Source: an uncultured virus (IMG/VR IMGVR_UViG_3300016371_000006) (taxonomy: Duplodnaviria > Heunggongvirae > Uroviricota > Caudoviricetes). Taken from it: 64,000 bases of DNA. The stretch is taken from IMG/VR virus record IMGVR_UViG_3300016371_000006; one strand, written 5' to 3'. The notes beneath the pieces were generated by a model. The model was not told the origin of the DNA, searched no databases, and saw only the letters and a program-made list of their open reading frames with translations. Below, in pieces: positions 5,458 to 22,953 of this stretch. Position numbers and translations under genes: made by a program. Positions within the stretch are counted from its first letter, which is position 1, and the number at the start of each line of letters is the position of its first letter.

Positions 5458-5796
5458 TCATCGCGCTCCCCGGCCATGCATCGTGCGCCAGCCGTTGGGC
5501 CGTTCCCGCGTGGGCGTGGCGTCCACGATGGGCTGGCACTCGCGGCACGGCGGCTTAGACAGGTTGAACCCGATCTGGCAGCCCCAGGCGTACTGGCTGG
5601 CGCAGGCTTCACACAAGCCCGCCTGCATCGCCTTGTGCTTGATCGAATCCCAGTTCCTGGCTTGGCGGAGCGTCTCCGGGCGGGCGGATTTTGGGGGTTG
5701 TCGGTGGCGGGGGGTGTGTTCTGATACCCCCCGACTACCGTGTGGCATCATTTCGGGCCCTAGGACCCCGGGAATGGGCATCTGTGTGTCAGTCAT
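5458..5796 (-). CDS. Hypothetical protein (two CxxC)
   Basis: CEAC and CREC motifs; operon position. Confidence 0.55.
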   Translation of the reverse strand: MTDTQMPIPGVLGPEMMPHGSRGVSEHTPRHRQPPKSARPETLRQARNWDSIKHKAMQAGLCEACASQYAWGCQIGFNLSKPPCRECQPIVDATPTRERPNGWRTMHGRGAR

Positions 5797-8157: not shown

Positions 8158-9513
8158 TTACAACAGACTCATCTGGTCCGGGTCGGGCTCGCGGCCCTCG
8201 GCCTCGCGCTCCATCCGCTCGTAGTAGCGTTCGTCGGATCCCTCGTCGGGCTCGCCGTCATCCACAGGTTCGTCCCCAGGTTGTTCACAGCCCTGCTCCG
8301 ATGTGGTGTCGGCGGGTTCCTGTTGCTGCGCAGCCTTATTCGCCTCCTCGTCCTCGCGCTTGAAGTAGTTGATCAGGGCGTGCGCCTCGTCGAAGGTGAA
8401 CTCCTTGGAGCTGTTGATGACGCGGTCCTTGTACGGCCAGCCGGGCATCAGGCGGCGAACCAGATTCATGCAGAAGTCCAGCCGCGCCCGCACCCCTTCG
8501 GGGCTGCGATCGTTGTAACCACGCCTGGAGAGGATGGTGCCCAGCGCGGTCAGCTGGCCGTGGGTGACCATGCGCGGTGGGTCCGGGGTCATCATCGCGG
8601 CTTCCCGCGCGGCCTCGATCGCGTCGTAGGCTTCGTCCTCGGTCTGGCGGTGTCCGCCGGTGGACACCTCCTCCGGCTCGCCGCGCTGGGCGGCGGTGCG
8701 CGGCGCGATCCCGGTCGCCTTGATCTCCGGGGTGGTGGGCCGCCGCCGCGAGGGCTGCAGGGCGTCGGACGCGGCCATCTGCTCGACGATCGACGCCCGG
8801 CGAATCCCGCTGTCGGGCACCGGGGTCAGCGCCGGCCGCTCGGCCGCGGGGACCACGGCGACGGTGCCCATCAACAACTCGCCCGGGGAGATGTCCACAT
8901 CGAGCACCGGCACGACGAACCGCTTGGTCCCCTCGTCGGGGCGTTTGATGACCCGTTGGTCCAGGCGCAGGATCGCGGGCAGCGGCTTGCCCTGGCCGGC
9001 GAAGAACTCCAGAGTCTCCACCTGGCCCTTGATCTCCAGCGCGGCGTAGTAGCCGGTGGTGTCCACCCGCCACACCCCGAGCCCCTTGAGATCGCGCAGC
9101 ATCACCGACAGGCGCGTGTGCGGTTCGCACTGGCGGTTCTCCGGGATGCACAGACAGGGCTGCTCACCGATGAACTCGGTGATGCCGTCGCAGCGGCGCT
9201 GGCACCCGCCGCCCGACCACAGCTCGTAGTTCTGGGAGAACGCCATCACCGACGGCGGCACGATGACCGGCAGCCGGTCGGCCTTGGTGATGACCTCCCA
9301 CTGCGGGATGCCGGTCGGGGACTCGTCCCACTTGGTGACCGTGCCGCCGTAGAGCTTGGCCGCCTCCTCGACGCGGGCCTTGTCGGTGGAGGTGAGCCGG
9401 AACGTGTCCAGCGCGGCCGGGTGTTTCTTGCCCGAGCGCGGCGACTCGACCTGGCGCCCGAGCCGGATACGGCCGACCTCGGCCAATCTTCGTTGCAGAT
9501 CAAGGATGGGCAT
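8158..9513 (-). CDS. Gp3-like / recombination-directionality-factor-like DNA annealing protein
   Basis: MPILDLQRRLAEVGRIRLG start, CQRRCDG, CLC..C.PHTRLSVML, GVWRVDTTGYYAA; paired with an exonuclease. Confidence 0.7.
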   Translation of the reverse strand: MPILDLQRRLAEVGRIRLGRQVESPRSGKKHPAALDTFRLTSTDKARVEEAAKLYGGTVTKWDESPTGIPQWEVITKADRLPVIVPPSVMAFSQNYELWSGGGCQRRCDGITEFIGEQPCLCIPENRQCEPHTRLSVMLRDLKGLGVWRVDTTGYYAALEIKGQVETLEFFAGQGKPLPAILRLDQRVIKRPDEGTKRFVVPVLDVDISPGELLMGTVAVVPAAERPALTPVPDSGIRRASIVEQMAASDALQPSRRRPTTPEIKATGIAPRTAAQRGEPEEVSTGGHRQTEDEAYDAIEAAREAAMMTPDPPRMVTHGQLTALGTILSRRGYNDRSPEGVRARLDFCMNLVRRLMPGWPYKDRVINSSKEFTFDEAHALINYFKREDEEANKAAQQQEPADTTSEQGCEQPGDEPVDDGEPDEGSDERYYERMEREAEGREPDPDQMSLL

Positions 9514-10482: not shown

Positions 10483-10572
10483 GTTGACATGTTTACCGTT
10501 ACCCACCGACAAGTTCCGGAGCCACGCCGGTGTCCGTTCGCGGACACCCGGCCGGTCAGGGATCGTCGTCGG

Positions 10573-12263: not shown

Positions 12264-12291
12264 ACTATACACCCTATTAAGGTGCTGTCAA
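12264..12291 (-). promoter_or_regulatory. SigA-like promoter TTGACA-16-TATAGT
   Basis: Plus strand shows actata (12264-12269) and tgtcaa (12286-12291). A divergent TTGACA at 12310-12315 faces the RAMP-like gene. Confidence 0.7.
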
Positions 12292-12373: not shown

Positions 12374-13129
12374 ATGCCAAGCAAGCCTCCCCCACCTAAG
12401 ACCATCACCCTGCCCGTCACCGAGATCGGTCAGGTCCAGTTCGGCATCTTGGGCATAAGTCCTTATATCCACAGCCGCATGTCAGAGAAGGCCAAGCACG
12501 AACTGCTGTTCCCCAAGGGCCGGCCCAACCAGGCCGAGAAGGCCGCCCGCCTCAAGCACGAGCCCGTCGAGGAGTTCCGGGCCTCCCCCTACACCCTCAA
12601 GGACGAGGACGCCCCGACCTACCTGGCGACCAAGGGCGACATGTTCAAGGCCACCATGCGCACCGCTGCCAAGGACCTGCCCGGCGTCAACGGCGAACAG
12701 ATCGGGCGCCTGGTCTGGGTGGAAGGGATGTACCTGCCGCTGTGGGGTAACGCGAAGCTGCACATGGCCGTCGTGCGCAGCGCCAACCAGCAGAAGACCC
12801 CCGACATCCGCACCCGCGCGATCAGCGAAAAATGGGCCACCGTCATCACGGTGCGTTTCGTCAAGCCGCTGATGAACGAAAAGATCGTCACCAACCTGCT
12901 GTCCACCGGCGGGCAGTCCGCCGGTGTCGGCGACTGGCGCACGGAAAAGGGCAAAGGCACCTTCGGTCAATTCATTCTGATTAACACAGATGAACTTATG
13001 GCACATGAAGTGATGAAAATGGACCGCGCCGTGCAAATCCAAGCAATGGAAGCCGCACAAGCTTTCGATGATGAAACTCAAGAAATGCTCACCTGGTTCG
13101 ACGCCGAACGTGAGGAGCGTGGCCGATGA
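12374..13129 (+). CDS. RAMP/Cas7-like RNA-binding protein, putative effector of the GGY-NN array
   Basis: N-terminal strand QFGILGISPYIH, helix FKATMRTAA, beta-hairpin DIRTRAISEKWATVITVRF, C-terminal Gly-rich loop GGQSAGVGDWRTEKGKGTFGQF. ATG follows GAAAGG. No cas1/cas2 or CRISPR in the window. Confidence 0.7.
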   Translation: MPSKPPPPKTITLPVTEIGQVQFGILGISPYIHSRMSEKAKHELLFPKGRPNQAEKAARLKHEPVEEFRASPYTLKDEDAPTYLATKGDMFKATMRTAAKDLPGVNGEQIGRLVWVEGMYLPLWGNAKLHMAVVRSANQQKTPDIRTRAISEKWATVITVRFVKPLMNEKIVTNLLSTGGQSAGVGDWRTEKGKGTFGQFILINTDELMAHEVMKMDRAVQIQAMEAAQAFDDETQEMLTWFDAEREERGR

Positions 13130-13848
13130 CCAGACCCGCGCTGGTGACAATGCCGGTCAGCAAGCTCATCGAAGACCTGTCGATCTACCCGCGAAGAATT
13201 GTCAACCAGAACCATGTCCGCGACCTGACATCAGCGTTGCAAGCAGCCGAAGGCGCAGATATATTCCCGCCGCTGACCGTGGACCGGCGCTCGAAGCGTA
13301 TTGTCGACGGCTTTCATCGGCGACGAGCTTTCCTAGCGGTACTCGGGCCGGACGCGGAAATTCAAGCCGAACTACGGACCTACCATTCCGAGACGGAACT
13401 GCTTCTCGACGCAGTACGACTCAACTGCGTTCACGGGCTGAATCTTTACGAGATCGAAAAGCGCAGGATTGTTCTGAAGCTGAGCGACCTCGGCGTCGAC
13501 GACGACGAGATCGCCGGCGCGCTGCATGTTCCGCCGGTCCGGGTGCAGCAGATCAAAGTCCGTGTAGCGACGGTCGTCGACGGGGATGGGGCGGTGCTAA
13601 GGCTGGAACCGCTGAAACGACCGCTGTTTCATTTCCAGGGCCGCACGATGAGCGAGGCCCAGGCCGCAGCGGGAACGTCATCACCAGGCGGCTCGTATAT
13701 GCAAACAATCAGAGCTCTGCAAGATGGGCTGCGGTATCGGTTACTGCCAACCGACGGACGCATCGACGCCGCTCTGCGGACGTTGGCCGCCCTGCTTGAT
13801 AACTACTTGGAAGGGGATGAGGAGGAAGGTATTGCCGCGTCGGTGTAA
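13126..13848 (+). CDS. ParB/Srx N-terminal-domain protein, accessory to the RAMP-like gene
   Basis: LIEDLSIYPR, FPPLTVD...IVDGFHRRRA, LNCVHGLNL followed by an HTH; ATGA overlap with the upstream gene. Confidence 0.8.
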   Translation: MTRPALVTMPVSKLIEDLSIYPRRIVNQNHVRDLTSALQAAEGADIFPPLTVDRRSKRIVDGFHRRRAFLAVLGPDAEIQAELRTYHSETELLLDAVRLNCVHGLNLYEIEKRRIVLKLSDLGVDDDEIAGALHVPPVRVQQIKVRVATVVDGDGAVLRLEPLKRPLFHFQGRTMSEAQAAAGTSSPGGSYMQTIRALQDGLRYRLLPTDGRIDAALRTLAALLDNYLEGDEEEGIAASV

Positions 13849-13865: not shown

Positions 13866-15656
13866 GGTGCGGTTCGGTCAGATGGCGTAAGGCAGTTGCG
13901 GTCCGGTGGGGCACGGCTCGGTTAGGCATGGACAGTTACGGAATGGCCGGGTCAGTTCTGGTGAGGCGAGTTGCGGTCTGGTAAGGCGGGATCGGGTCTG
14001 GTCTGGTACGGCTGTTGAGGACGGTACGGCAAGGCATGGTGGGGTCGGGCGTGTTGCGGCGTGGTCGGGCGAGTTGCGGTCTGGCATGGCACGGTCGGGA
14101 ATGGTGGGGGTTAGGTGCGGCTGTTGAGGTGACGTCTGGTGCGGCGTGTCTAGGTGAGTTCGGGCAAGGTCGGGCGAGGTCTGGCGAGGTGCGGTCGGGT
14201 GCGGCCGTTGGGGTTGGGCATGGTGTGGTGAGGTGTGGCGCGGCGTGTTGCGTGAGACACGGTGCGGCAAGGCCCGGTGTGGAGGGTCAGGCAGGATAGG
14301 GCGGGGTTCGGTGCGGCCGTTGGGGAATGGTCCGGTTTGGTCGGGTTTGGTGCGGTCTGGAACGGCGAGTTCAGGCAAGGTTCGGTGCGGCTGTTGAGGC
14401 GAGTTCCGGCGCGGTTAGGCCTGGCGAGGTTTGGCCTGGCGAGGTATGGCCCGGTCGGGTGCGGCTGTTGGGGTTAGGTCGGGTTACGTGAGGTCTGGAG
14501 AGTTGAGGCATGGCGCGGTGCGGCATGGCATGGGATGGAGAGGTTAGGTCCGGTCGGGCGCGATAAGTTGCGGTGAGATGAGGCTGTTGTGGTGGGGTTG
14601 GGTTTGGCGAGTTACGGCCTGGTAAGGCGTGGTCGGGTCCGGTTGGGTCTGGTGAGGCCGTTGCGGTTAGTTCGGGTTTGGTGGGGTCCGGTCGGGTGTG
14701 GCGTGGCAAGGTCTGGCGAGGTCTGGAAGGCGAGTTGTGGTGAGGTGCGGCCGTTGCGGTCTGGTGGGGTGAGGCATGGCGGGGTCGGGAACGGCACGGC
14801 GTGGTTAGGCGAGTCTAGGTCTGGTGCGGTGAGGCTGTTGAGGCATGGTCCGGTCGGGTGAGGCGAGGTTAGGTGGGTTTGGGTCCGGTCTGGTGTGGCG
14901 TGGCTTGGCTAGGTTTGGCGCGGTGAGGCTGGGTGAGGTGCGGTTCGGCTGTTGCGGTGTGGCATGTTGAGGACGGGTACGGCAGGGCATGGTGGGGCCG
15001 GGCACGTCAAGGAGTGGATAGGTGGGCTCTGGCATGGCGAGGCGAGTTGCGGTGCGGCAGTTTTGGCATGTTAAGGCGTGGCACGGTGGGGACGGGTCAG
15101 GTGTGGAGGGCTAGGCAAGGTTGGGTGAGGTGCGGCTGTTGTGGTCTGGCACGTTGCGGTGTGGCCCGGCGTGGTCGGGCAAGGTCCGGTAAGGCACGGC
15201 AGGTACGGCGGGGTATGGTCCGGTGCGGTCGGCACGGTTGGGTCGGGTTAGTTTGGGCGCGGCAGGGTGTGGCGGGGCAAGGTGGGGTCCGGTAAGGTGC
15301 GGCAGCTAAGGTCCGGTTGGGTTCGGTCGGGTTGGGCGGGGAGAGGTACGGCAAGATCCGGTGCGGCCCGGCGAGGTTTGGCGGGTTCCGGTGAGGTGCG
15401 GCTGCTGCGGTAAGGCATGGTGAGGTTCGGCAAGGCGAGGTCGGGTGAGGTCTGGTCGGGTGCGGTGAGGCATGGTCGGGTAAGGTGCGGCAGCTGCGGT
15501 CTGGCGCGTTCAGGAGAGGTCGGGTTAGGTCGGGTGGGGTCTGTTGGGGCATGTTCCGGCTAGGCGTGGCAAGGTGCGGCAGTTGAGGCGCGGTCTGGTG
15601 AGGTCCGGTTTGGTTAGTTGGGGCTCGGTGGGGCACGGCACGGCGGGGTGAGGTAC
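13866..15656 (+). ncRNA. Array of GGY-NN pentamer repeats, 19 segments; putative guide-RNA array
   Basis: 5-nt periodicity (GG[T/C]NN, occasionally GTT/GGA/GAT). 4-nt GGC[TAC] delimiters, usually in the context GGTGC-GGCN-GTTG, at 13891, 14010, 14119, 14203, 14315, 14389, 14463, 14582, 14656, 14749, 14833, 14947, 15056, 15134, 15198, 15301, 15400, 15489 and 15578. 15 of 19 segment lengths are exactly 5n+4. No credible ORF. Confidence 0.85.
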
Positions 15657-15658
15657 GG

Positions 15659-15692
15659 CCTCGGGGCACTGGCGGTTGCTGGTGCCCCGAGG
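15659..15692. terminator. Hairpin closing the array, between convergent transcription units
   Basis: CCTCGGGGCAC...GTGCCCCGAGG perfect 11-bp stem. Confidence 0.7.
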
Positions 15693-15693
15693 A

Positions 15694-16581
15694 TTAAACC
15701 TCGAACGGTAGCGCGGCGTTGAGCAGCCGAGTACGCAAGCTCATGTCGAGATAGGCGCTGCTGATGTCAATCCCGACATAACGTCTGCCGGCGCGCAAAG
15801 CGGCCGCGCCACTGGTGCCCGAACCGCTGAACGGATCTAATGTCACCCCATTGGGTCGGCAGCCGGCCTGGATGCACCGCAGCGGCAATGCGATGGGAAA
15901 GGTGGCGAAGTGCGCTTGCGGGAATTTCTCGACGGGAATACTCCAGCAGTCGCCTGGATTCTTGCCGGCTTCATTGAGGGTGCGCGCCCCGGCGGCGATG
16001 GCGCCGTGCGGATTCCCCCCCGGGGTGTAGGCCCGCCCGGATCTACCGTCGCCCGAGTAGGGTTTGCGCTCGCTGCGCTGGCTGCGGTTTACTGAGATCG
16101 GGCTGTGTGGTGTTCTTATCGCGTCTAGATCGAACCAATACTTCGGTTGTTTGACGAGTAGGAAGACCTGTTCGGAGCGTACGGCCAGCCGGTCGGTTAC
16201 CGATTCAGGCATGGTGTTTTCTTTTAGCCAGGTAATCGAGTTGCGTAAAATCCAGCCGTCATTTTGCAGTGCGAATGCGACGCGCCAGGGTATGCCGAGC
16301 AGGTTTTTCGTTGCGCTGTAGGAATCACCCAGCACAATCCAGCAGGTTCCGTCGCCGGCCAGCACGCGGCGCAGTTCGGCGAACAGGGCCCGCAGGTGTT
16401 CGACGTATTCGGCGGGCGTGTCCTCGAGCCCGTACTGCCCGTCGCTGTCGTAGTCGCGCAGGCCGTAGTAGGGCGGGCTGGTGACAATGCAGTCCACGCT
16501 GTCGCCGGGCAGGGTGCGCGCGACCTCGAGCGCGTCGCCGTGGTGCAGCGTGATCTGGTCGTCGGTGTAGTGGACGCTCAT
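15694..16581 (-). CDS. N4-C/N6-A DNA methyltransferase (beta class)
   Basis: TSPPY (motif IV) at the N-terminus, HFATFP, LDPFSGSGTSG (motif I) at the C-terminus. Confidence 0.9.
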   Translation of the reverse strand: MSVHYTDDQITLHHGDALEVARTLPGDSVDCIVTSPPYYGLRDYDSDGQYGLEDTPAEYVEHLRALFAELRRVLAGDGTCWIVLGDSYSATKNLLGIPWRVAFALQNDGWILRNSITWLKENTMPESVTDRLAVRSEQVFLLVKQPKYWFDLDAIRTPHSPISVNRSQRSERKPYSGDGRSGRAYTPGGNPHGAIAAGARTLNEAGKNPGDCWSIPVEKFPQAHFATFPIALPLRCIQAGCRPNGVTLDPFSGSGTSGAAALRAGRRYVGIDISSAYLDMSLRTRLLNAALPFEV

Positions 16582-17240
16582 ATACCGGCCATCAACTCCC
16601 AGTAGTTGAACTTGGTGCCGAGCGCGTCGACGATCGTCACCGTCTGTTCGGCGTCGAGGTTCAGGCATCGGCTGGCGTAGATGCGGGCGTATTTGGGGAT
16701 GCGGATTTCGTTTCGGACGAACGCGCATCCGCGGCCGGTGAGCCGCCACCAGCCGACCCGCGAGCTACCGTCCTCGCGTTCGCCGGGCATCTGTTCGATC
16801 AGGCCCCAGTACCGTGCAATGCACATCTCCCCGCTGCGTGAGACGTGGATGGGTTCACGCCCGGTGGAGTCGATGTAGGGCAGGTAGACCCAATCGTCGC
16901 CGGCCTTGCGGTACATCGCGATCAGCACGCGGGCGATGCCGGCGTTAATCTTGCGCCGATACACCTTGGCGAACTGGCCGCACAACGGACAGGTGACGCC
17001 GTCGTCGACGTTATCGCGCAGCCACGCCTGCGCCTCCCGTAGTGTGGTGTCGGGTCGGAGGTTGAACATGGTGAACGTGATCGGGTCGATCAACTCCTCA
17101 ACCCAGTCGTCGTCCTCTTTGTCGTCGTCGGGCTGATCGAACAGATCGCCCTGGCCGTCATCGCGCGGCGCCCAGGAGTAGCACCTACACGACGGGCAGT
17201 AGCCGACGTGCGGTTCGTGCGGGCATTGCGGACATGTCAC
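16578..17240 (-). CDS. Hypothetical protein
   Basis: CPLCGQFAKVYRR...ARYWGLIE; operon overlap. Confidence 0.65.
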   Translation of the reverse strand: MTCPQCPHEPHVGYCPSCRCYSWAPRDDGQGDLFDQPDDDKEDDDWVEELIDPITFTMFNLRPDTTLREAQAWLRDNVDDGVTCPLCGQFAKVYRRKINAGIARVLIAMYRKAGDDWVYLPYIDSTGREPIHVSRSGEMCIARYWGLIEQMPGEREDGSSRVGWWRLTGRGCAFVRNEIRIPKYARIYASRCLNLDAEQTVTIVDALGTKFNYWELMAGI

Positions 17241-17680
17241 ACCAGAACCTCCTGCGGCTGGGGCTGTTTGAGCATCCGCACCCGGCGCTGCGGCCGCGGG
17301 AACAGGCCGTCCATGTCTTTGGGTTCCCGTTTGCCGCGCGGCGGATGCGCCGGCGGCCCACTGAACGGGTCGTCATCACCGCCGCCGCCGGGTGGCTTGA
17401 ACTCGATGCAGTGATACCGGTCCATCGGGTAGGGCTGGCCGTCCTTCCACTGGTCGAGCCACTCGATCGGCGTCTTGCCCATCAGCGCGCACAGCAAAAG
17501 CGGGCAGCCGCCGCCCGGATTGGTCTTGCGTAGGCCAGCCTCGTAACGCTGCCACGCCACCTCGTCGGGTTGCTGACACGGCGCGAAGCACCAATTCTCC
17601 ATCCAGCCGTAGCCTTCGGTGCCATTGGAGAAGGGTGATCCGTCGCGGGCGCTGGCCTCGATCTCCTTATACGAGCGCAT
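17237..17680 (-). CDS. Hypothetical protein
   Basis: PFSNGTEG..W...WC motif common in phage proteins. Confidence 0.65.
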   Translation of the reverse strand: MRSYKEIEASARDGSPFSNGTEGYGWMENWCFAPCQQPDEVAWQRYEAGLRKTNPGGGCPLLLCALMGKTPIEWLDQWKDGQPYPMDRYHCIEFKPPGGGGDDDPFSGPPAHPPRGKREPKDMDGLFPRPQRRVRMLKQPQPQEVLV

Positions 17681-17821
17681 CGCTGGCTTCTTCGGCGGCC
17701 GCGGCGAAGTTCACCACGTCGCCCAGCTCGGCGACGGCCTGCGCGTCCAGGGTGCCCGGATCGCCGCCCACGGACACGCCGACGGTGAATCCGTTGACCT
17801 CAAAGTCGAAGTGGCTCTTGG

Positions 17822-18073
17822 TCATGACGGCACCACCACGACGGGCTCGTGGCCGTACTCGCAGCCCTGCGGGCAGGGGCACGGCATCTTGTACGTGCGG
17901 CTGAACTTGTGGCCGTTGCTGCACTCGAAGTAGTCGCTGTGTCGGTTCGGGTCGTGCCGGTGGTACTGGCCGTCCTCGTCGTAGTAGGCCTCAAACCCCA
18001 TACAGGTGGCGGTCGAGCCCTTGCTGTAGAGCCTGCTCGTGACGCCTTCGGCGACGCACTGATCGCACTTCAC
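17822..18073 (-). CDS. Small Cys-rich hypothetical protein
   Basis: YYDEDGQYHRHDPN, CSNGH. Confidence 0.6.
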   Translation of the reverse strand: MKCDQCVAEGVTSRLYSKGSTATCMGFEAYYDEDGQYHRHDPNRHSDYFECSNGHKFSRTYKMPCPCPQGCEYGHEPVVVVPS

Positions 18074-18459
18074 TTCTCGCCCTCCTCGTCACCGTCCTCG
18101 TCGGCCTTGGTGGGCTGCTCGGGCTTGGGCGGCTCGGGCTCGGTGACCTGATCGAAGATCACCTTGAGGTCGTCCTCCATCTCGAGTGGCAGCACCGTGT
18201 CGCCGTTACGCTGTTCCCAGGAGCGGCGGATCAGCCGCTCAGCTTCTTTCATGTCGGCGTCGCGGATCACCTCGGCCCGGCGGATACGCAGCACCGGGAT
18301 GCATTCACCGCTGTCGACGTGGGTGACCAGCTTGGTGGTGTCGACGAGTACCACCAGGGCGTGGATCTTCTCCGGCTCACGGATCAGCGACTTGACGATC
18401 GGACCCAGGCCGTTGGCGTCGCCGCGCGGCAGCGCGCCGGACAGGGAGATTTCGGTCAT
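18070..18459 (-). CDS. Hypothetical protein
   Basis: ATG after an AAAGGAGA RBS. Confidence 0.6.
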   Translation of the reverse strand: MTEISLSGALPRGDANGLGPIVKSLIREPEKIHALVVLVDTTKLVTHVDSGECIPVLRIRRAEVIRDADMKEAERLIRRSWEQRNGDTVLPLEMEDDLKVIFDQVTEPEPPKPEQPTKADEDGDEEGEK

Positions 18460-18518
18460 GGTTCTATGGTTCTCCTTTCGTGGGAAGGTGTCCACCCGCG
18501 GACACCGATCGTCTGACG

Positions 18519-18951
18519 TTACTGCGTGGGGCCGACAGGCTTCGCCCAATCGCCATTCGTGTCGTGTCGGCGCCGGCCGTTGCGGATGCTGTCCCAGGTA
18601 TTCGCGCTGCGGGTATCCCACCGCAAGTTGCCGATGCAATTATTGAGCCGGACATCATCGTGGTGGCATGCTTCCATCCCGGTTGGGCATGGCCCGAACC
18701 ACGCCTCCAGAACAACGATGTGAAGATCGACGGTGCGCTTCATTCCCGGCTGCCGTAAGCCGATCTTCAGATAGCCGCTCCGTTTGTCGATCCACGGCGC
18801 TATCGGCTTGCCCCGTAGCCGTCGCGGGTTTGCACCGCCCCACCTGTTCGCGGTAACGACGATCCGATCGACGGACCGGACGCGGCCATCACTGCTTACT
18901 TCGTAGTAGCCCTCGAAGCCGAGGACCTCGCGCCATTCAACTGAGATCATC
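18519..18951 (-). CDS. NUMOD4 + HNH homing endonuclease
   Basis: EWREVLGFEGYYEVSSDGRVRSVDR...ACHHDD...NLRWDTRSAN; start uncertain. Confidence 0.85.
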
Positions 18952-19148
18952 AGCGGAACATTCGGGACAAAGCAGTTCAGGGAAGGTGTCGTCGATCCAG
19001 CGCAGCCACCACCCGTCCACCGTGGCCACCCGCTGACGGGCCTCGTCGGCCTCGGCGAAGGTGTGGTACTCCGTGTCAGGCTCAGCGCGCACCCGGCAGC
19101 GGTCACACATGATCGTGTACCGGGCGGTGATGTCGATGCCGCCGGCCA

Positions 19149-19559
19149 TCATCTGCCGAGCCGTGATTGCAGCAGCGCCAGTCCCCCAACAGGCTCCCAT
19201 CGAAGATTCGCTAATTTGTTGTTGGCCGGGTCGTCGTCGATGTTACGGGCGTCGTAGCCGGGCGGCTGCGCGCGGCCGGTGAACGCTTCGAGCACCAGGC
19301 GCTTCACCGGGAACTGGATGTAGTCGTTCTCGATCCACAGGTTGACCGCGCGGGTGCCGTCGTTGGGCCGCACGCGCGGGGAGAGAATCCTGCCCTTCAC
19401 GGTGCGGATGCACGGCACGCCGTCGCGGCCGGTGCGCCCGGCGACCTGGCGGGTGACCGATCGGATGCGGCCCATATCGGAGGCTTGGTAGGCGGCCGAG
19501 AAGCGCGGATCAAGAACCGGGCGCCACTGCTCGACGACCATCTCAACCTGCCCGATCAA
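19149..19559 (-). CDS. NUMOD4/HNH-like protein (degenerate HNH)
   Basis: YQASDMGRIRS...RLVLEAF...NIDDDPANNKLANLRW. Confidence 0.75.
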   Translation of the reverse strand: MIGQVEMVVEQWRPVLDPRFSAAYQASDMGRIRSVTRQVAGRTGRDGVPCIRTVKGRILSPRVRPNDGTRAVNLWIENDYIQFPVKRLVLEAFTGRAQPPGYDARNIDDDPANNKLANLRWEPVGGLALLQSRLGR

Positions 19560-20843: not shown

Positions 20844-22544
20844 ATGGTTGATGTTTTGAAGGGCTTCTCCACCCGGGCGACTCCGCAGAGCCAGCCCGCC
20901 GGCGCCGCGACGGTGCGCAACGCCGCCGGCGGCCATGTGTTCGCGATCGACGACATGGCCCGGCTGCGCCGATTCCTGACGATCGGGACCTCCGGCGGCA
21001 CGTACTACACCAGCGCGCCGGAGCTCACGCGCGAGAACGCCGAAGTCGTGCTGCGGTTGGCGCAGAGCAATCCCTTCGCCCTGGTCGATGAGATCGTCGC
21101 GATCTCCACCGCGGGGCGCGCGCCCAAGGCCAACCCGGCGATCTTCGCGCTGGCGATCGCCGCGGCCGAGGGCGCCAACGACCCCGAGCGGGGATCGGGC
21201 CGTAAGTATGCGCTGTCGAAGTTGCCCGCGGTGTGTCGCACCGGGACGCATATGTACCTGTTCGCCGGGTACGTCGAGCAGTTCCGCGGCTGGGGTCGCG
21301 GCCTGAAGCGCGCCGTCGGCGAGTGGTACAACGGCCGGTCGGTCGACAAGTTGGCCTACCAGATCCTCAAGTACCGCCAGCGCGAGGGCTGGCGGCACGC
21401 CGACCTGCTGGCGCTCTCCCATCCCGCGCCGGACACCGCGATGCGAGACAACCTCTACCGCTATATCACCGACACCATGACCGGGCGCGACCCCGAGCAC
21501 GTCGAGCGGATGGCGCCCCACCGCGAGCACTACCAGGTCTTCCCGGCTGACAAGATTCCGGCGCTGCCTGATCTGATCGGTGCCTACGAGCAGGTGCAGA
21601 ACGCCACCGCACTGCAGGCGGTCAACCTGATCGCCGAGCACGACCTGTCCTGGGAGATGCTGCCCGACAAGCTGCTGGGCGAGGCGCTGGTGTGGGAGGC
21701 GCTGATCGGCAAGGGGATGCCGCAGACCGCGCTGATGCGCCAGCTGCCCCGGCTGACCCGGCTGGGCCTGACCACCGGCAAGACCGGCAACCTGATCGCC
21801 GAGCAGTTGCAGGACACGCAGAAGCTCAAGCTGGGCCGAGTGCACCCGATCAACGTGCTGGTCGCGCAGCGCACCTACGCCAGCGGCCGCAGCGCGCGGC
21901 GCGGTGACTCCACCTGGGAGCCGACGCGCAAGATCACCGACGCGCTCGACGCGGCGTTCTACAACGCCTACGGCGCGGTTGAGCCGTCGGGCAAGTCGGT
22001 GCTGCTGGCCTGCGACGTGTCGGGCTCGATGGGCGCCTCGGCCGGGGGCCTGCCGATCACCTGCCGGGAGGTGTGCGCGGCGCTGTCGCTAGTGAGCCTG
22101 AACGTCGAGCGCGATGCCGACATCATCGGGTTCTCCGACGGGCGCAGCCACGGCGGCTACGGGATGTACTCCAACAGCGTGGCCTCGCGGCTGGACATCA
22201 GCGCGCGGCGGCGCCTCGACGACGTGTGCTCCTACATGGCGGGCCTGAACTTCGGGCGCACGGATTGCTCTTTGCCAATGCTATGGGCGATGAAGAACAA
22301 GCTGGACTTCTCAGCAATTCAGGTGTACACGGACAATGAGACTTGGTATGGAAGCGTTCATCCTTGGCAAGCTCTTGACCAGTACCGGAACATGGTTGGT
22401 CACGACGTCAGCCTAGCGGTGATCGCGATGACAGCAACCAGAGGAAGCATCGCAAACCCCGACGATCCTCGCCAGATGGACGTTGCTGGCTTCGACGTTT
22501 CGGTTCCGCAAGTCCTATCCGATTTCGCTGCGTGTCGTATCTGA
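20844..22544 (+). CDS. rsr: Ro60/TROVE-domain RNA-binding protein with vWA domain
   Basis: NAAGG, RLRRFLTIGTSGGTYY, GWGRGLKRAV.EWY, KYRQREGWRH.DLL.LSHP, DVSGSM, TDNETW, MDVAGFD; RBS AGGAGG. Confidence 0.92.
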   Translation: MVDVLKGFSTRATPQSQPAGAATVRNAAGGHVFAIDDMARLRRFLTIGTSGGTYYTSAPELTRENAEVVLRLAQSNPFALVDEIVAISTAGRAPKANPAIFALAIAAAEGANDPERGSGRKYALSKLPAVCRTGTHMYLFAGYVEQFRGWGRGLKRAVGEWYNGRSVDKLAYQILKYRQREGWRHADLLALSHPAPDTAMRDNLYRYITDTMTGRDPEHVERMAPHREHYQVFPADKIPALPDLIGAYEQVQNATALQAVNLIAEHDLSWEMLPDKLLGEALVWEALIGKGMPQTALMRQLPRLTRLGLTTGKTGNLIAEQLQDTQKLKLGRVHPINVLVAQRTYASGRSARRGDSTWEPTRKITDALDAAFYNAYGAVEPSGKSVLLACDVSGSMGASAGGLPITCREVCAALSLVSLNVERDADIIGFSDGRSHGGYGMYSNSVASRLDISARRRLDDVCSYMAGLNFGRTDCSLPMLWAMKNKLDFSAIQVYTDNETWYGSVHPWQALDQYRNMVGHDVSLAVIAMTATRGSIANPDDPRQMDVAGFDVSVPQVLSDFAACRI

Positions 22545-22571: not shown

Positions 22572-22661
22572 GCCGTGGTGTGGTGCGTTATGGCACGGCG
22601 CGGTACGGCGGGACGTGGTTCGGTATGGCGCGTCGAGGTCCGGCAAGGTGAGTTACGGTAA
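22572..22661 (+). ncRNA. Stand-alone GGY-NN guide-like unit (18 pentamers)
   Basis: gccgt ggtgt ggtgc gttat ggcac ggcgc ggtac ggcgg gacgt ggttc ggtat ggcgc gtcga ggtcc ggcaa ggtga gttac ggtaa; preceded by TATCCT (possible -10, 22560-22565) and followed by a hairpin. Confidence 0.8.
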
Positions 22662-22663
22662 CC

Positions 22664-22696
22664 GAGGGCAGGGTCACTTCAGGTGGCCCTGCCTTC
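22664..22696 (+). terminator. Hairpin after the stand-alone guide
   Basis: GAGGGCAGGGTCAC-TTCAG-GTGGCCCTGCCTTC, 14-bp stem with two G-U pairs. Confidence 0.65.
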
Positions 22697-22936: not shown

Positions 22937-22953
22937 TGTCCACGCGCGGACAC

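Follow-up and report, generated by a model that had tools for sequence, protein, structure and literature searches.

The 64,000-nucleotide stretch analyzed here (hereafter, the window), about half of the genome of an uncultured tailed phage (Caudoviricetes; IMG/VR record IMGVR_UViG_3300016371_000006), carries a VIPR system, that is, a gene for a guide-binding protein (vipr), an accessory gene (vap) and an array of guides (vrRNAs), and the last guide of this array encodes motif I of the DNA methyltransferase gene that converges on it. The phage's own methyltransferase allele fits the guide less well than do most alleles of its close relatives. The explanation that we favor, and consider probable, is that the guide is aimed at the relatives' alleles and that the own copy has escaped, through either drift or selection. 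What can be read from the sequence, namely, the parts of the system, the way its guides decode, the less good fit of the own allele and the recurrence of this layout at two further guides of the window and at other loci, is consistent with this explanation.

As described in the parts of the VIPR preprints that were available, on which all statements below about published VIPR systems draw, Vipr coats the guide, the two-base (NN) segments of which pair with double-stranded DNA, every third base being skipped, and represses transcription (10.64898/2026.04.26.720920; 10.64898/2026.10.15.759431). The locus in the window is a VIPR system as defined there (10.64898/2026.04.26.720920), with a RAMP-fold Vipr that contains the G-loop, an adjacent vap and GGY/NN tandem repeats. 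The vipr gene (12374-13129, plus strand) encodes a protein of 251 amino acids (aa) that belongs to no Pfam family. Folding from the single sequence gave a predicted local distance difference test (pLDDT) score of 31, and we used instead a model built from a 119-row alignment (pLDDT 88), which matches RAMP chains of the Cas7/Csm3 type; a structure search with this model returned 44 chains at E <= 0.001, and those listed belong to CRISPR Cas7/Csm/Cmr complexes, with template modeling (TM) scores of about 0.3-0.5. The predicted G-loop, D187-W188-R189, is retained in at least 90% of the 119 aligned sequences and parallels D177-W178-R179 of the SUSP1 Vipr, where the D-W-R loop binds GGY (10.64898/2026.04.26.720927). 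The vap gene (13126-13848, plus strand; 240 aa), which overlaps the vipr stop codon, is ParB-like (phrog_1033, E 2.3e-12; ParB_N clusters in Atlas) and has no Pfam match. The array (13866-15658, plus strand) consists of 337 five-base units, 266 of them GGY, in 26 in-phase tracts of 2-23 units, mostly shifted by one base via 4-nt junction units. Apart from the array, the window contains a single GGY/NN tract, a solo guide at 22572, and five shuffled windows contained none. Hairpins were found only behind the last guide and the solo guide; we infer the guide processing sites. The one-base skip is aligned to the codon wobble position: read in frame, three guides spell conserved motifs of proteins.

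The last guide (15582-15656, plus strand), which is preceded by a 4-nt junction unit at 15578-15581, has the NN string GA GC CT GA CC TT TA GG TC GG AC AC GG GA AC, in agreement with the first-pass annotation, made from the sequence alone, and its decoding to motif I likewise holds: taken as codon positions 1 and 2, the string gives (D/E)-A-L-(D/E)-P-(F/L)-Y-G-S-G-T-T-G-(D/E)-T. The convergent gene (15694-16581, minus strand; 295 aa) encodes an N4/N6 DNA methyltransferase (PF01555, E 1.7e-47 for a longer open reading frame (ORF) starting at 16749; phrog_67) that is about 60% identical to mycobacteriophage enzymes. Its motif I, codons 246-260 (15802-15846, minus strand), about 145 bases from the end of the guide, reads V-T-L-D-P-F-S-G-S-G-T-S-G-A-A, with TTA for Leu and AGT for Ser257, and shares with the guide 8 of 15 dinucleotides, also as originally annotated, and 22 of 30 bases. 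Across the two strands of the window (64 kb), arrays excluded, this is the best site for the guide (p = 0.02, 200 shuffles of the NN order), and the guide matches its own flank better than the 800-bp flanks of other arrays (p = 0.01). A 15-bp hairpin (15659-15692, plus strand; z = -4.3, with none of 200 shuffles folding as well) closes the array, with a single base between it and the stop codon of the methyltransferase gene, and presumably is the guide tail or a terminator. The last two dinucleotides of the guide (GA AC) also precede the hairpin of the solo guide and are probably a fixed tail, which leaves an informative core of about 12 units. This core matches the own allele at 8 of 12 units (19 of 24 bases). 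Any member of the methyltransferase family, across 87 distinct homologues, matches it at 6-10 of 12, so that the match identifies the family and does not single out the own allele as the target.

Comparison of these alleles, 87 distinct motif-I strings from 108 homologous loci after an identical copy (L030) was dropped, placed 42 strings at 9-10 of the 12 core units, 31 at 8 and 14 lower. Among the 30 closest homologues at the DNA level (at least 48% identity), 25 fit the guide better than the own allele (9-10 versus 8 of 12, with 18 of the 30 reaching 10), three fit it equally well and two worse. The first-pass annotation had singled out the TTA and AGT codons as features of the own allele, to be checked against relatives that lack the cassette. 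None of these 30 homologues has TTA at the Leu position and none lacks Thr257; at the protein level, GTTG is present in all 119 homologues, including the 86%-identical allele P0151, and GTSG in none, and 118 of the 119 have Val at the position that is Thr in the own allele (V247T). The changes in the own allele shorten the longest perfect run of matching units from six, in the consensus alleles, to four. Thus, of the earlier interpretation, the decoding to motif I, the correspondence of both array ends to the flanking genes and the absence of TTA and AGT from relatives stand, and the role of TTA and AGT as escape changes is not demonstrated.

Of the 20 guides in the window that were compared with the window itself and with shuffles, three beat the shuffles, and in each case the best site lies in the adjoining gene, at the end closer to the guide. 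The remaining 17 have no significant site in the window and none in the sister records G003 and G004, and against 2.9 Mb of loci they gave short partial matches only, to which no null comparison was applied. At the opposite end of the array from the methyltransferase gene, the first long guide (13895-14009, plus strand), behind a short tract of 5 units at 13866, encodes APGTSY, a motif of Vap homologues, and matches the 3' end of vap (13681-13749, plus strand) at 13 of 23 dinucleotides and 32 of 46 bases (p = 0.005). APGTSY occurs in 20 of 83 Vap homologues, all of these among the 26 closest, and the own version, SPGGSY, in none. Within the footprint of the guide, the own vap departs from the family at four of six conserved residues, compared with none of 28 outside (p = 0.0003). 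The guide shares one of these departures, and the other three break the match. The guide also carries, at unit 8, a Gln of the own lineage that is found in 2 of 53 homologues and therefore points at close kin. A sister Vap (P0272) fits it at 17 of 23 residues, versus 15 for the own Vap. The claim that both terminal guides match the flanking genes is accordingly valid for this window (vap and the methyltransferase) and fails as a general rule, since the other loci described below show the pattern at the last guide only.

The third guide, overlooked in the first-pass annotation, is the solo guide (22572-22661, plus strand), located directly after a Ro60/TROVE gene (20844-22544, plus strand; PF05731, PF25045). 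It decodes to a conserved Ro60 motif and matches the 3' end of the gene (22419-22466, plus strand) at 10 of 16 dinucleotides and 25 of 32 bases (p = 0.005), and a 15-bp hairpin follows (22664-22696, plus strand; z = -3.4, 0 of 200 shuffles). Four guide-free relatives have Ro60 alleles that fit better than the own 10 of 16, namely, L235 (13 of 16) and L238, L239 and L240 (12 of 16 each, L239 with the same codons as L238); a distant guide-free relative fits at 8 of 16, L242 has no homologous site, and a gapped pattern search for this guide recovered one stretch. An internal guide (14319-14388, plus strand) bears an uncertain resemblance to the GIPWR motif of the methyltransferase (site 16296-16255, minus strand), where 7 of 14 dinucleotides agree; within the window p is 0.10 and against other flanks 0.01-0.02, and homologues fit it little better.

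To this window, which is left out of the counts that follow, we added a survey of 125 loci with vipr homologues (the best 80 of 306 confirmed viral matches and all 45 genome matches), most of which contain GGY/NN tracts; their 152 arrays were de-replicated to 138. Guides of at least 8 units with a nearly full flank were compared with their own 800-base flank and with the flanks of all other loci. With the amino-acid score, 8 of 71 last guides matched their downstream flank at p <= 0.02, against an expectation of 1.4 (binomial 9e-5), and with the NN score 7 of 71 did so (binomial 6e-4). The corresponding downstream counts were 1 and 2 of 70 for first guides and 2 and 0 of 24 for solo guides; upstream, they were 0 and 0 of 82 (last), 1 and 3 of 82 (first), 2 and 1 of 189 (middle) and 1 and 1 of 23 (solo). 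The flank signal emerged only after restriction to flanks, the size and scoring of which were chosen post hoc, and a whole-locus self-search of 461 guides by NN score gave no excess (19 versus 14.9 expected); the best flank p value (9e-5) survives the 32 tests run. In 8 of the 10 downstream matches of last or solo guides, with 45-78% of dinucleotides matching, the base that is skipped falls on the wobble position in the likely gene (p = 0.003 against a null of 1/3, which is generous because the matches were partly picked by a stop-penalizing score and the ORF was chosen by the analyst). The matched neighbors include, in seven cases, genes for terminase, prohead protease, head-tail adaptor, capsid or tail proteins. 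Roughly one last guide in ten, then, detectably resembles its downstream neighbor, and matches at both ends are special to this window. Separately, single guides directly after vipr in L128 (10623) and L163 (10823) resemble the 3' end of their own vipr (9 of 16 and 7 of 12, respectively), and a guide of L229 at 10794 has a near-perfect match at 5551, 5 kb upstream in its own locus.

For two cassettes of Bradyrhizobium (L230 and L207), relatives that lack the array could be compared; 301 genomes of the genus were searched twice, 75 and 73 matched, and 50 loci were fetched. The L230 cassette, about 1.9 kb long, lies between two genes that abut in the sister prophages L253 and L254. In these two, which are the closest sisters of L230 (86% and 76%), the first six units of the guide match perfectly, compared with five of six in the own allele; overall, the guide fits both at 7 of 11 units, the own allele at 6 of 11 and the other 39 array-free alleles at 3-6 of 11. 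The L207 guide fits 18 of 41 array-free alleles at 8 of 13 units, in most of them eight in a row, compared with 7 for the own allele; 17 others also have 7 and 6 have fewer. These allele differences, of one unit each, are consistent with guides aimed at relatives, without being proof.

A possible mechanism is that, upon co-infection, the Vipr filament would bind the relative's methyltransferase allele and spare the own one, and the rival genome would be handicapped in cis near the insertion point of the cassette. The own allele would escape by the few routes that a wobble-skipping code allows, namely, six-fold codons (Leu TTA, Ser AGY) and mild changes such as Thr to Ser. Because guide and resistant allele are tightly linked, recombinants that gain the allele would tend to gain the guide, and the two would therefore travel as a unit. 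From this analysis we propose, tentatively and as something that falls short of an even chance, that the cassette and the resistant allele enjoy biased inheritance; without a cut, such a bias would need a cis block to replication or packaging, or an activity of Vap. Bolder, and a shade more doubtful, is the suggestion that VIPR cassettes and solo guides are RNA-programmed phage gene drives, each insertion coming with a guide directed at the gene that borders it, in a nuclease-free form of homing. The Vipr filament, together with the ParB-like Vap on the rival genome, would then bias replication or recombination such that the cassette spreads along with the resistant allele.

A number of observations weigh against the proposed targeting of relatives or its consequences. 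How silencing without a cut would bias inheritance is the weak link: VIPR is known to silence, not to cut, and a rival whose methyltransferase gene is silenced would be rescued by enzyme supplied in trans. V247T, which is among the three departures of the own methyltransferase allele, leaves the match unlowered. The own gene has other rare codons (a second TTA, at codon 112, and three AGA, with a G+C content at third codon positions (GC3) of 0.71 after codon 57). The excess of departures within the footprint is borderline in DNA (3 of 9 inside versus 4 of 88 outside, p = 0.016-0.03) and lower in protein comparisons (2 of 11 versus 2 of 82, p = 0.067; 2 of 12 versus 11 of 122, p = 0.33). The Tyr encoded by the guide is present in none of the 87 DNA or 119 protein homologues. 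The two closest protein alleles (86% and 74% identical) have Cys at the Leu position and match the guide at 9 of 15 residues, equal to the own allele; the closer one, P0151, retains Thr257 and has Cys at 248. In the syntenic sister phage G004 (71% complete, no vipr match), the sole cassette-free sister of this phage whose DNA was compared, the methyltransferase gene is non-syntenic and matches at 8 of 15, no better than the own allele. No empty site for the cassette of this window was seen in G004 or, among the matches listed, in the contigs of four soil runs (60-100% of each run); among the same matches, no contig joined the flanking sequences so as to skip the cassette, and none carried a further methyltransferase allele at motif I, with the limit that contigs drop rare variants. 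The perfect gapped target envisaged in the first-pass annotation did not turn up either: the 12-unit core has no match in viral contigs, and an 11-unit pattern has one match in viral contigs and none in genome contigs. At nine units, there are four stretches, representing two distinct genes, neither from a close relative (38% and 26% identity), and there was no plasmid match. In the survey, about 63 of 71 last guides lack a neighbor match, and middle guides are enriched for downstream matches by the amino-acid score (11 of 170), although not by the NN score (3 of 170). In Bradyrhizobium, the own allele fits the L230 guide at least as well as do 39 of the 41 array-free alleles, and conserved-column footprint excess is absent (p = 0.42 for L230 and 0.84 for L207). 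Finally, a 'recoded 3' end' of Ro60, considered on the basis of GC3 change points, was dropped because the low GC3 there is common to guide-free relatives and thus does not indicate recoding; a change point at p < 0.01 was likewise obtained for 9 of 11 control ORFs, in several of them from upstream start calls.

Given that motif I is universal, the last guide could be a general weapon against any methyltransferase-bearing competitor, its adjacency to a methyltransferase gene being coincidental. The best natural match indeed is a run of 12 consecutive units (12 of 15) in a distant enzyme (26% identity) of another virus record (L029/L305), homologues are found in 576 phage records, and published VIPR targets are rival elements (10.64898/2026.04.26.720920). 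A coincidence of this kind seems quite unlikely to us, given that three guides in one window each adjoin their target family, that last guides match their own downstream flank above the flanks of other loci and that the L230 guide fits better only its two closest sisters. Another possibility is that terminal guides are a footprint of acquisition, copied from array-adjacent DNA and since drifted, with no role against relatives; the vap guide shares residues of the own lineage, and the sites lie about 100-600 bases from the guides. Where guide and own allele differ, it is mostly the guide that keeps the conserved residue (Thr257 in the methyltransferase; Ala186, Thr189 and Gln197 in vap), so that the gene, not the guide, appears to have changed, which points to selection on the own gene. 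We regard acquisition without further function as unlikely, if slightly less so than coincidence; acquisition as such is compatible with the targeting of relatives.

The remaining alternative, that a partial match weakly represses the phage's own methyltransferase, vap and Ro60 in a form of self-tuning, strikes us as the least probable of those considered. The own matches approach the published 80% cut-off (19 of 24 core bases for the methyltransferase and 25 of 32 for Ro60), and a six-unit footprint is enough for SUSP1 vrRNA4 (10.64898/2026.10.15.759431). The longest perfect run in the own methyltransferase allele, however, is four units, compared with six in consensus alleles, the sites are at the 3' ends of genes, the matched neighbors in other loci are essential virion genes, and self matches are lower than non-self matches in the published case (10.64898/2026.10.15.759431). 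We retain targeting of the relatives' alleles, with escape of the own copy, as the preferred explanation.

With respect to the published VIPR systems of SUSP1 and a P. fulva prophage (10.64898/2026.04.26.720920,.720927), the locus is alike in the RAMP fold with a DWR G-loop, the vipr-vap operon, the GGY/NN array, the one-base offsets ('staggered' arrays), the wobble-base skip and the structured 3' end. It differs in that the array is much longer (337 units) and guides encode adjoining genes. Published guides have 9-16 units and a structured 3' tail; the tracts here range from 2 to 23 units, and hairpins follow the last and the solo guide. The vap gene here is ParB-like, and the word ParB is absent from the main text and one supplement file of the VIPR paper. 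The self-search in that paper, with a cut-off of 80%, found no self matches; the near-self matches here, at 45-78%, fall below it. VIPR decides contests between phages and satellites, and some guides, with a lower self-match, target rival vipr genes or vrRNAs (10.64898/2026.10.15.759431). These guides resemble ours in standing alone and in matching self less well than non-self; the reported targets are vipr, vrRNAs, satellites and REP elements, whereas here the target is an ordinary neighbor gene and the phage has its own vipr. VIPR is also proposed to predate CRISPR. In print, then, are VIPR, its code, solo guides and the self-avoidance of vrRNA-targeting guides; apparently new is a last guide that encodes the relatives' allele of the adjoining gene, which would make this a variant layout of VIPR. 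Our literature searches found no paper on guides against a flanking gene or on VIPR homing, and the supplementary data of the VIPR preprints may list such targets. The term 'methyltransferase' is absent from the main text of all three VIPR preprints, 'homing' from the two in which it was sought and 'methyl' from one supplement file, and the passages available contain nothing on cassette spread, guide origin or acquisition.

The layout resembles that of the free-standing homing endonucleases of T4, which cut at sites hundreds to thousands of bases away in a neighbor gene and cause marker exclusion; SegA, SegE, SegF, SegG and MobE likewise are intergenic elements that target a conserved neighbor gene in related phages during co-infection (PMC2988022). 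The gp210 intron endonuclease, which causes interference in co-infection, also has a similar layout (PMC11620839). As with these elements, the guide target here lies in a neighbor gene hundreds of bases from the element. A presumably sensitive allele in relatives with an empty site was found for L230 (L253 and L254), guide-free Ro60 relatives fit the solo guide better than the own gene, and none was found for the cassette of the window in G004 or the listed soil-run contigs. Searches of vipr and vap against protein families detected no HNH, GIY-YIG or other nuclease family, only the ParB-like vap; therefore, the cassette would work like a homing endonuclease without being one. Here, specificity lies in an RNA code, not in a protein, and the cassette is known from sequence, with biased inheritance a proposal. 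In the homing of TnpB transposons, an RNA guide, the omegaRNA, likewise points at the neighborhood of the element itself. In TnpB, the guide consists of flanking DNA that is read without skips, and its target is the empty junction, whereas here the neighbor is re-encoded as GGY/NN and the site lies away from the junction.

The element, with a G+C content of 65.6%, is present in 24 soil-metagenome DNA runs, each a possible source, and in no RNA run among those listed, and its proteins are recorded on about 105-110 contigs, the largest of 117.8 kb; its genes are akin to mycobacteriophage genes, and the window is syntenic with the virus record G004, which places this VIPR system, like those in print, in a phage or prophage. 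A related phage contig of 17-20 kb, about 80% identical in patches (window 17236-19340), is present in all four of the soil runs examined, at a depth similar to that of this phage, and is a candidate natural competitor. The Vipr P0121 (93%), the Vap P0272 (59%) and the methyltransferase P0151 (86%) are each listed with a largest contig of 9,484 bases and, given this shared value, probably belong to one sister locus with the same layout. Within vipr, GC3 falls from 0.89 to 0.49 past codon 190 (window 12944-13129), and the P0121 allele differs mostly in patches; this 3' end is possibly swapped or guide-evading. A strong sigma-70-like promoter (11 of 12) at 12264-12291, on the minus strand, is oriented away from vipr. 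A 21-base quasi-palindrome recurs at 8648-8669, 10528-10548 and 18486-18507, with a similar one near 22937, and these possibly are operator sites. The methyltransferase of G004 (L249, G004 83780-85132) has an insert of considerably more than 100 aa and lower GC3; the insert contains a LAGLIDADG-like motif, which we take to indicate perhaps an intein or a homing endonuclease.

A guide against the neighbor gene, coupled with an escaped own allele, would provide a model of mobility, a drive by interference, with defined guide and target pairs. Near-self guides of this kind are hidden by an 80% self-match filter. The L230 locus, compared with L253 and L254, offers a guide and target case in a cultured host with an empty-site sister, and 25 Mycobacterium and 5 Gordonia phage records (H41-H70), in which proteins labeled hypothetical distantly resemble Vipr (24-34% identity), could serve as a culturable test system. 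The paired own and relatives' alleles are natural experiments on mismatch tolerance, of use for a programmable DNA-binding tool. If the drive hypothesis is true, it would account for the location of VIPR cassettes next to genes for terminase, capsid, tail and methyltransferase proteins and would imply that guides can be written from array-adjacent DNA, which would give a handle on the acquisition of GGY/NN guides.

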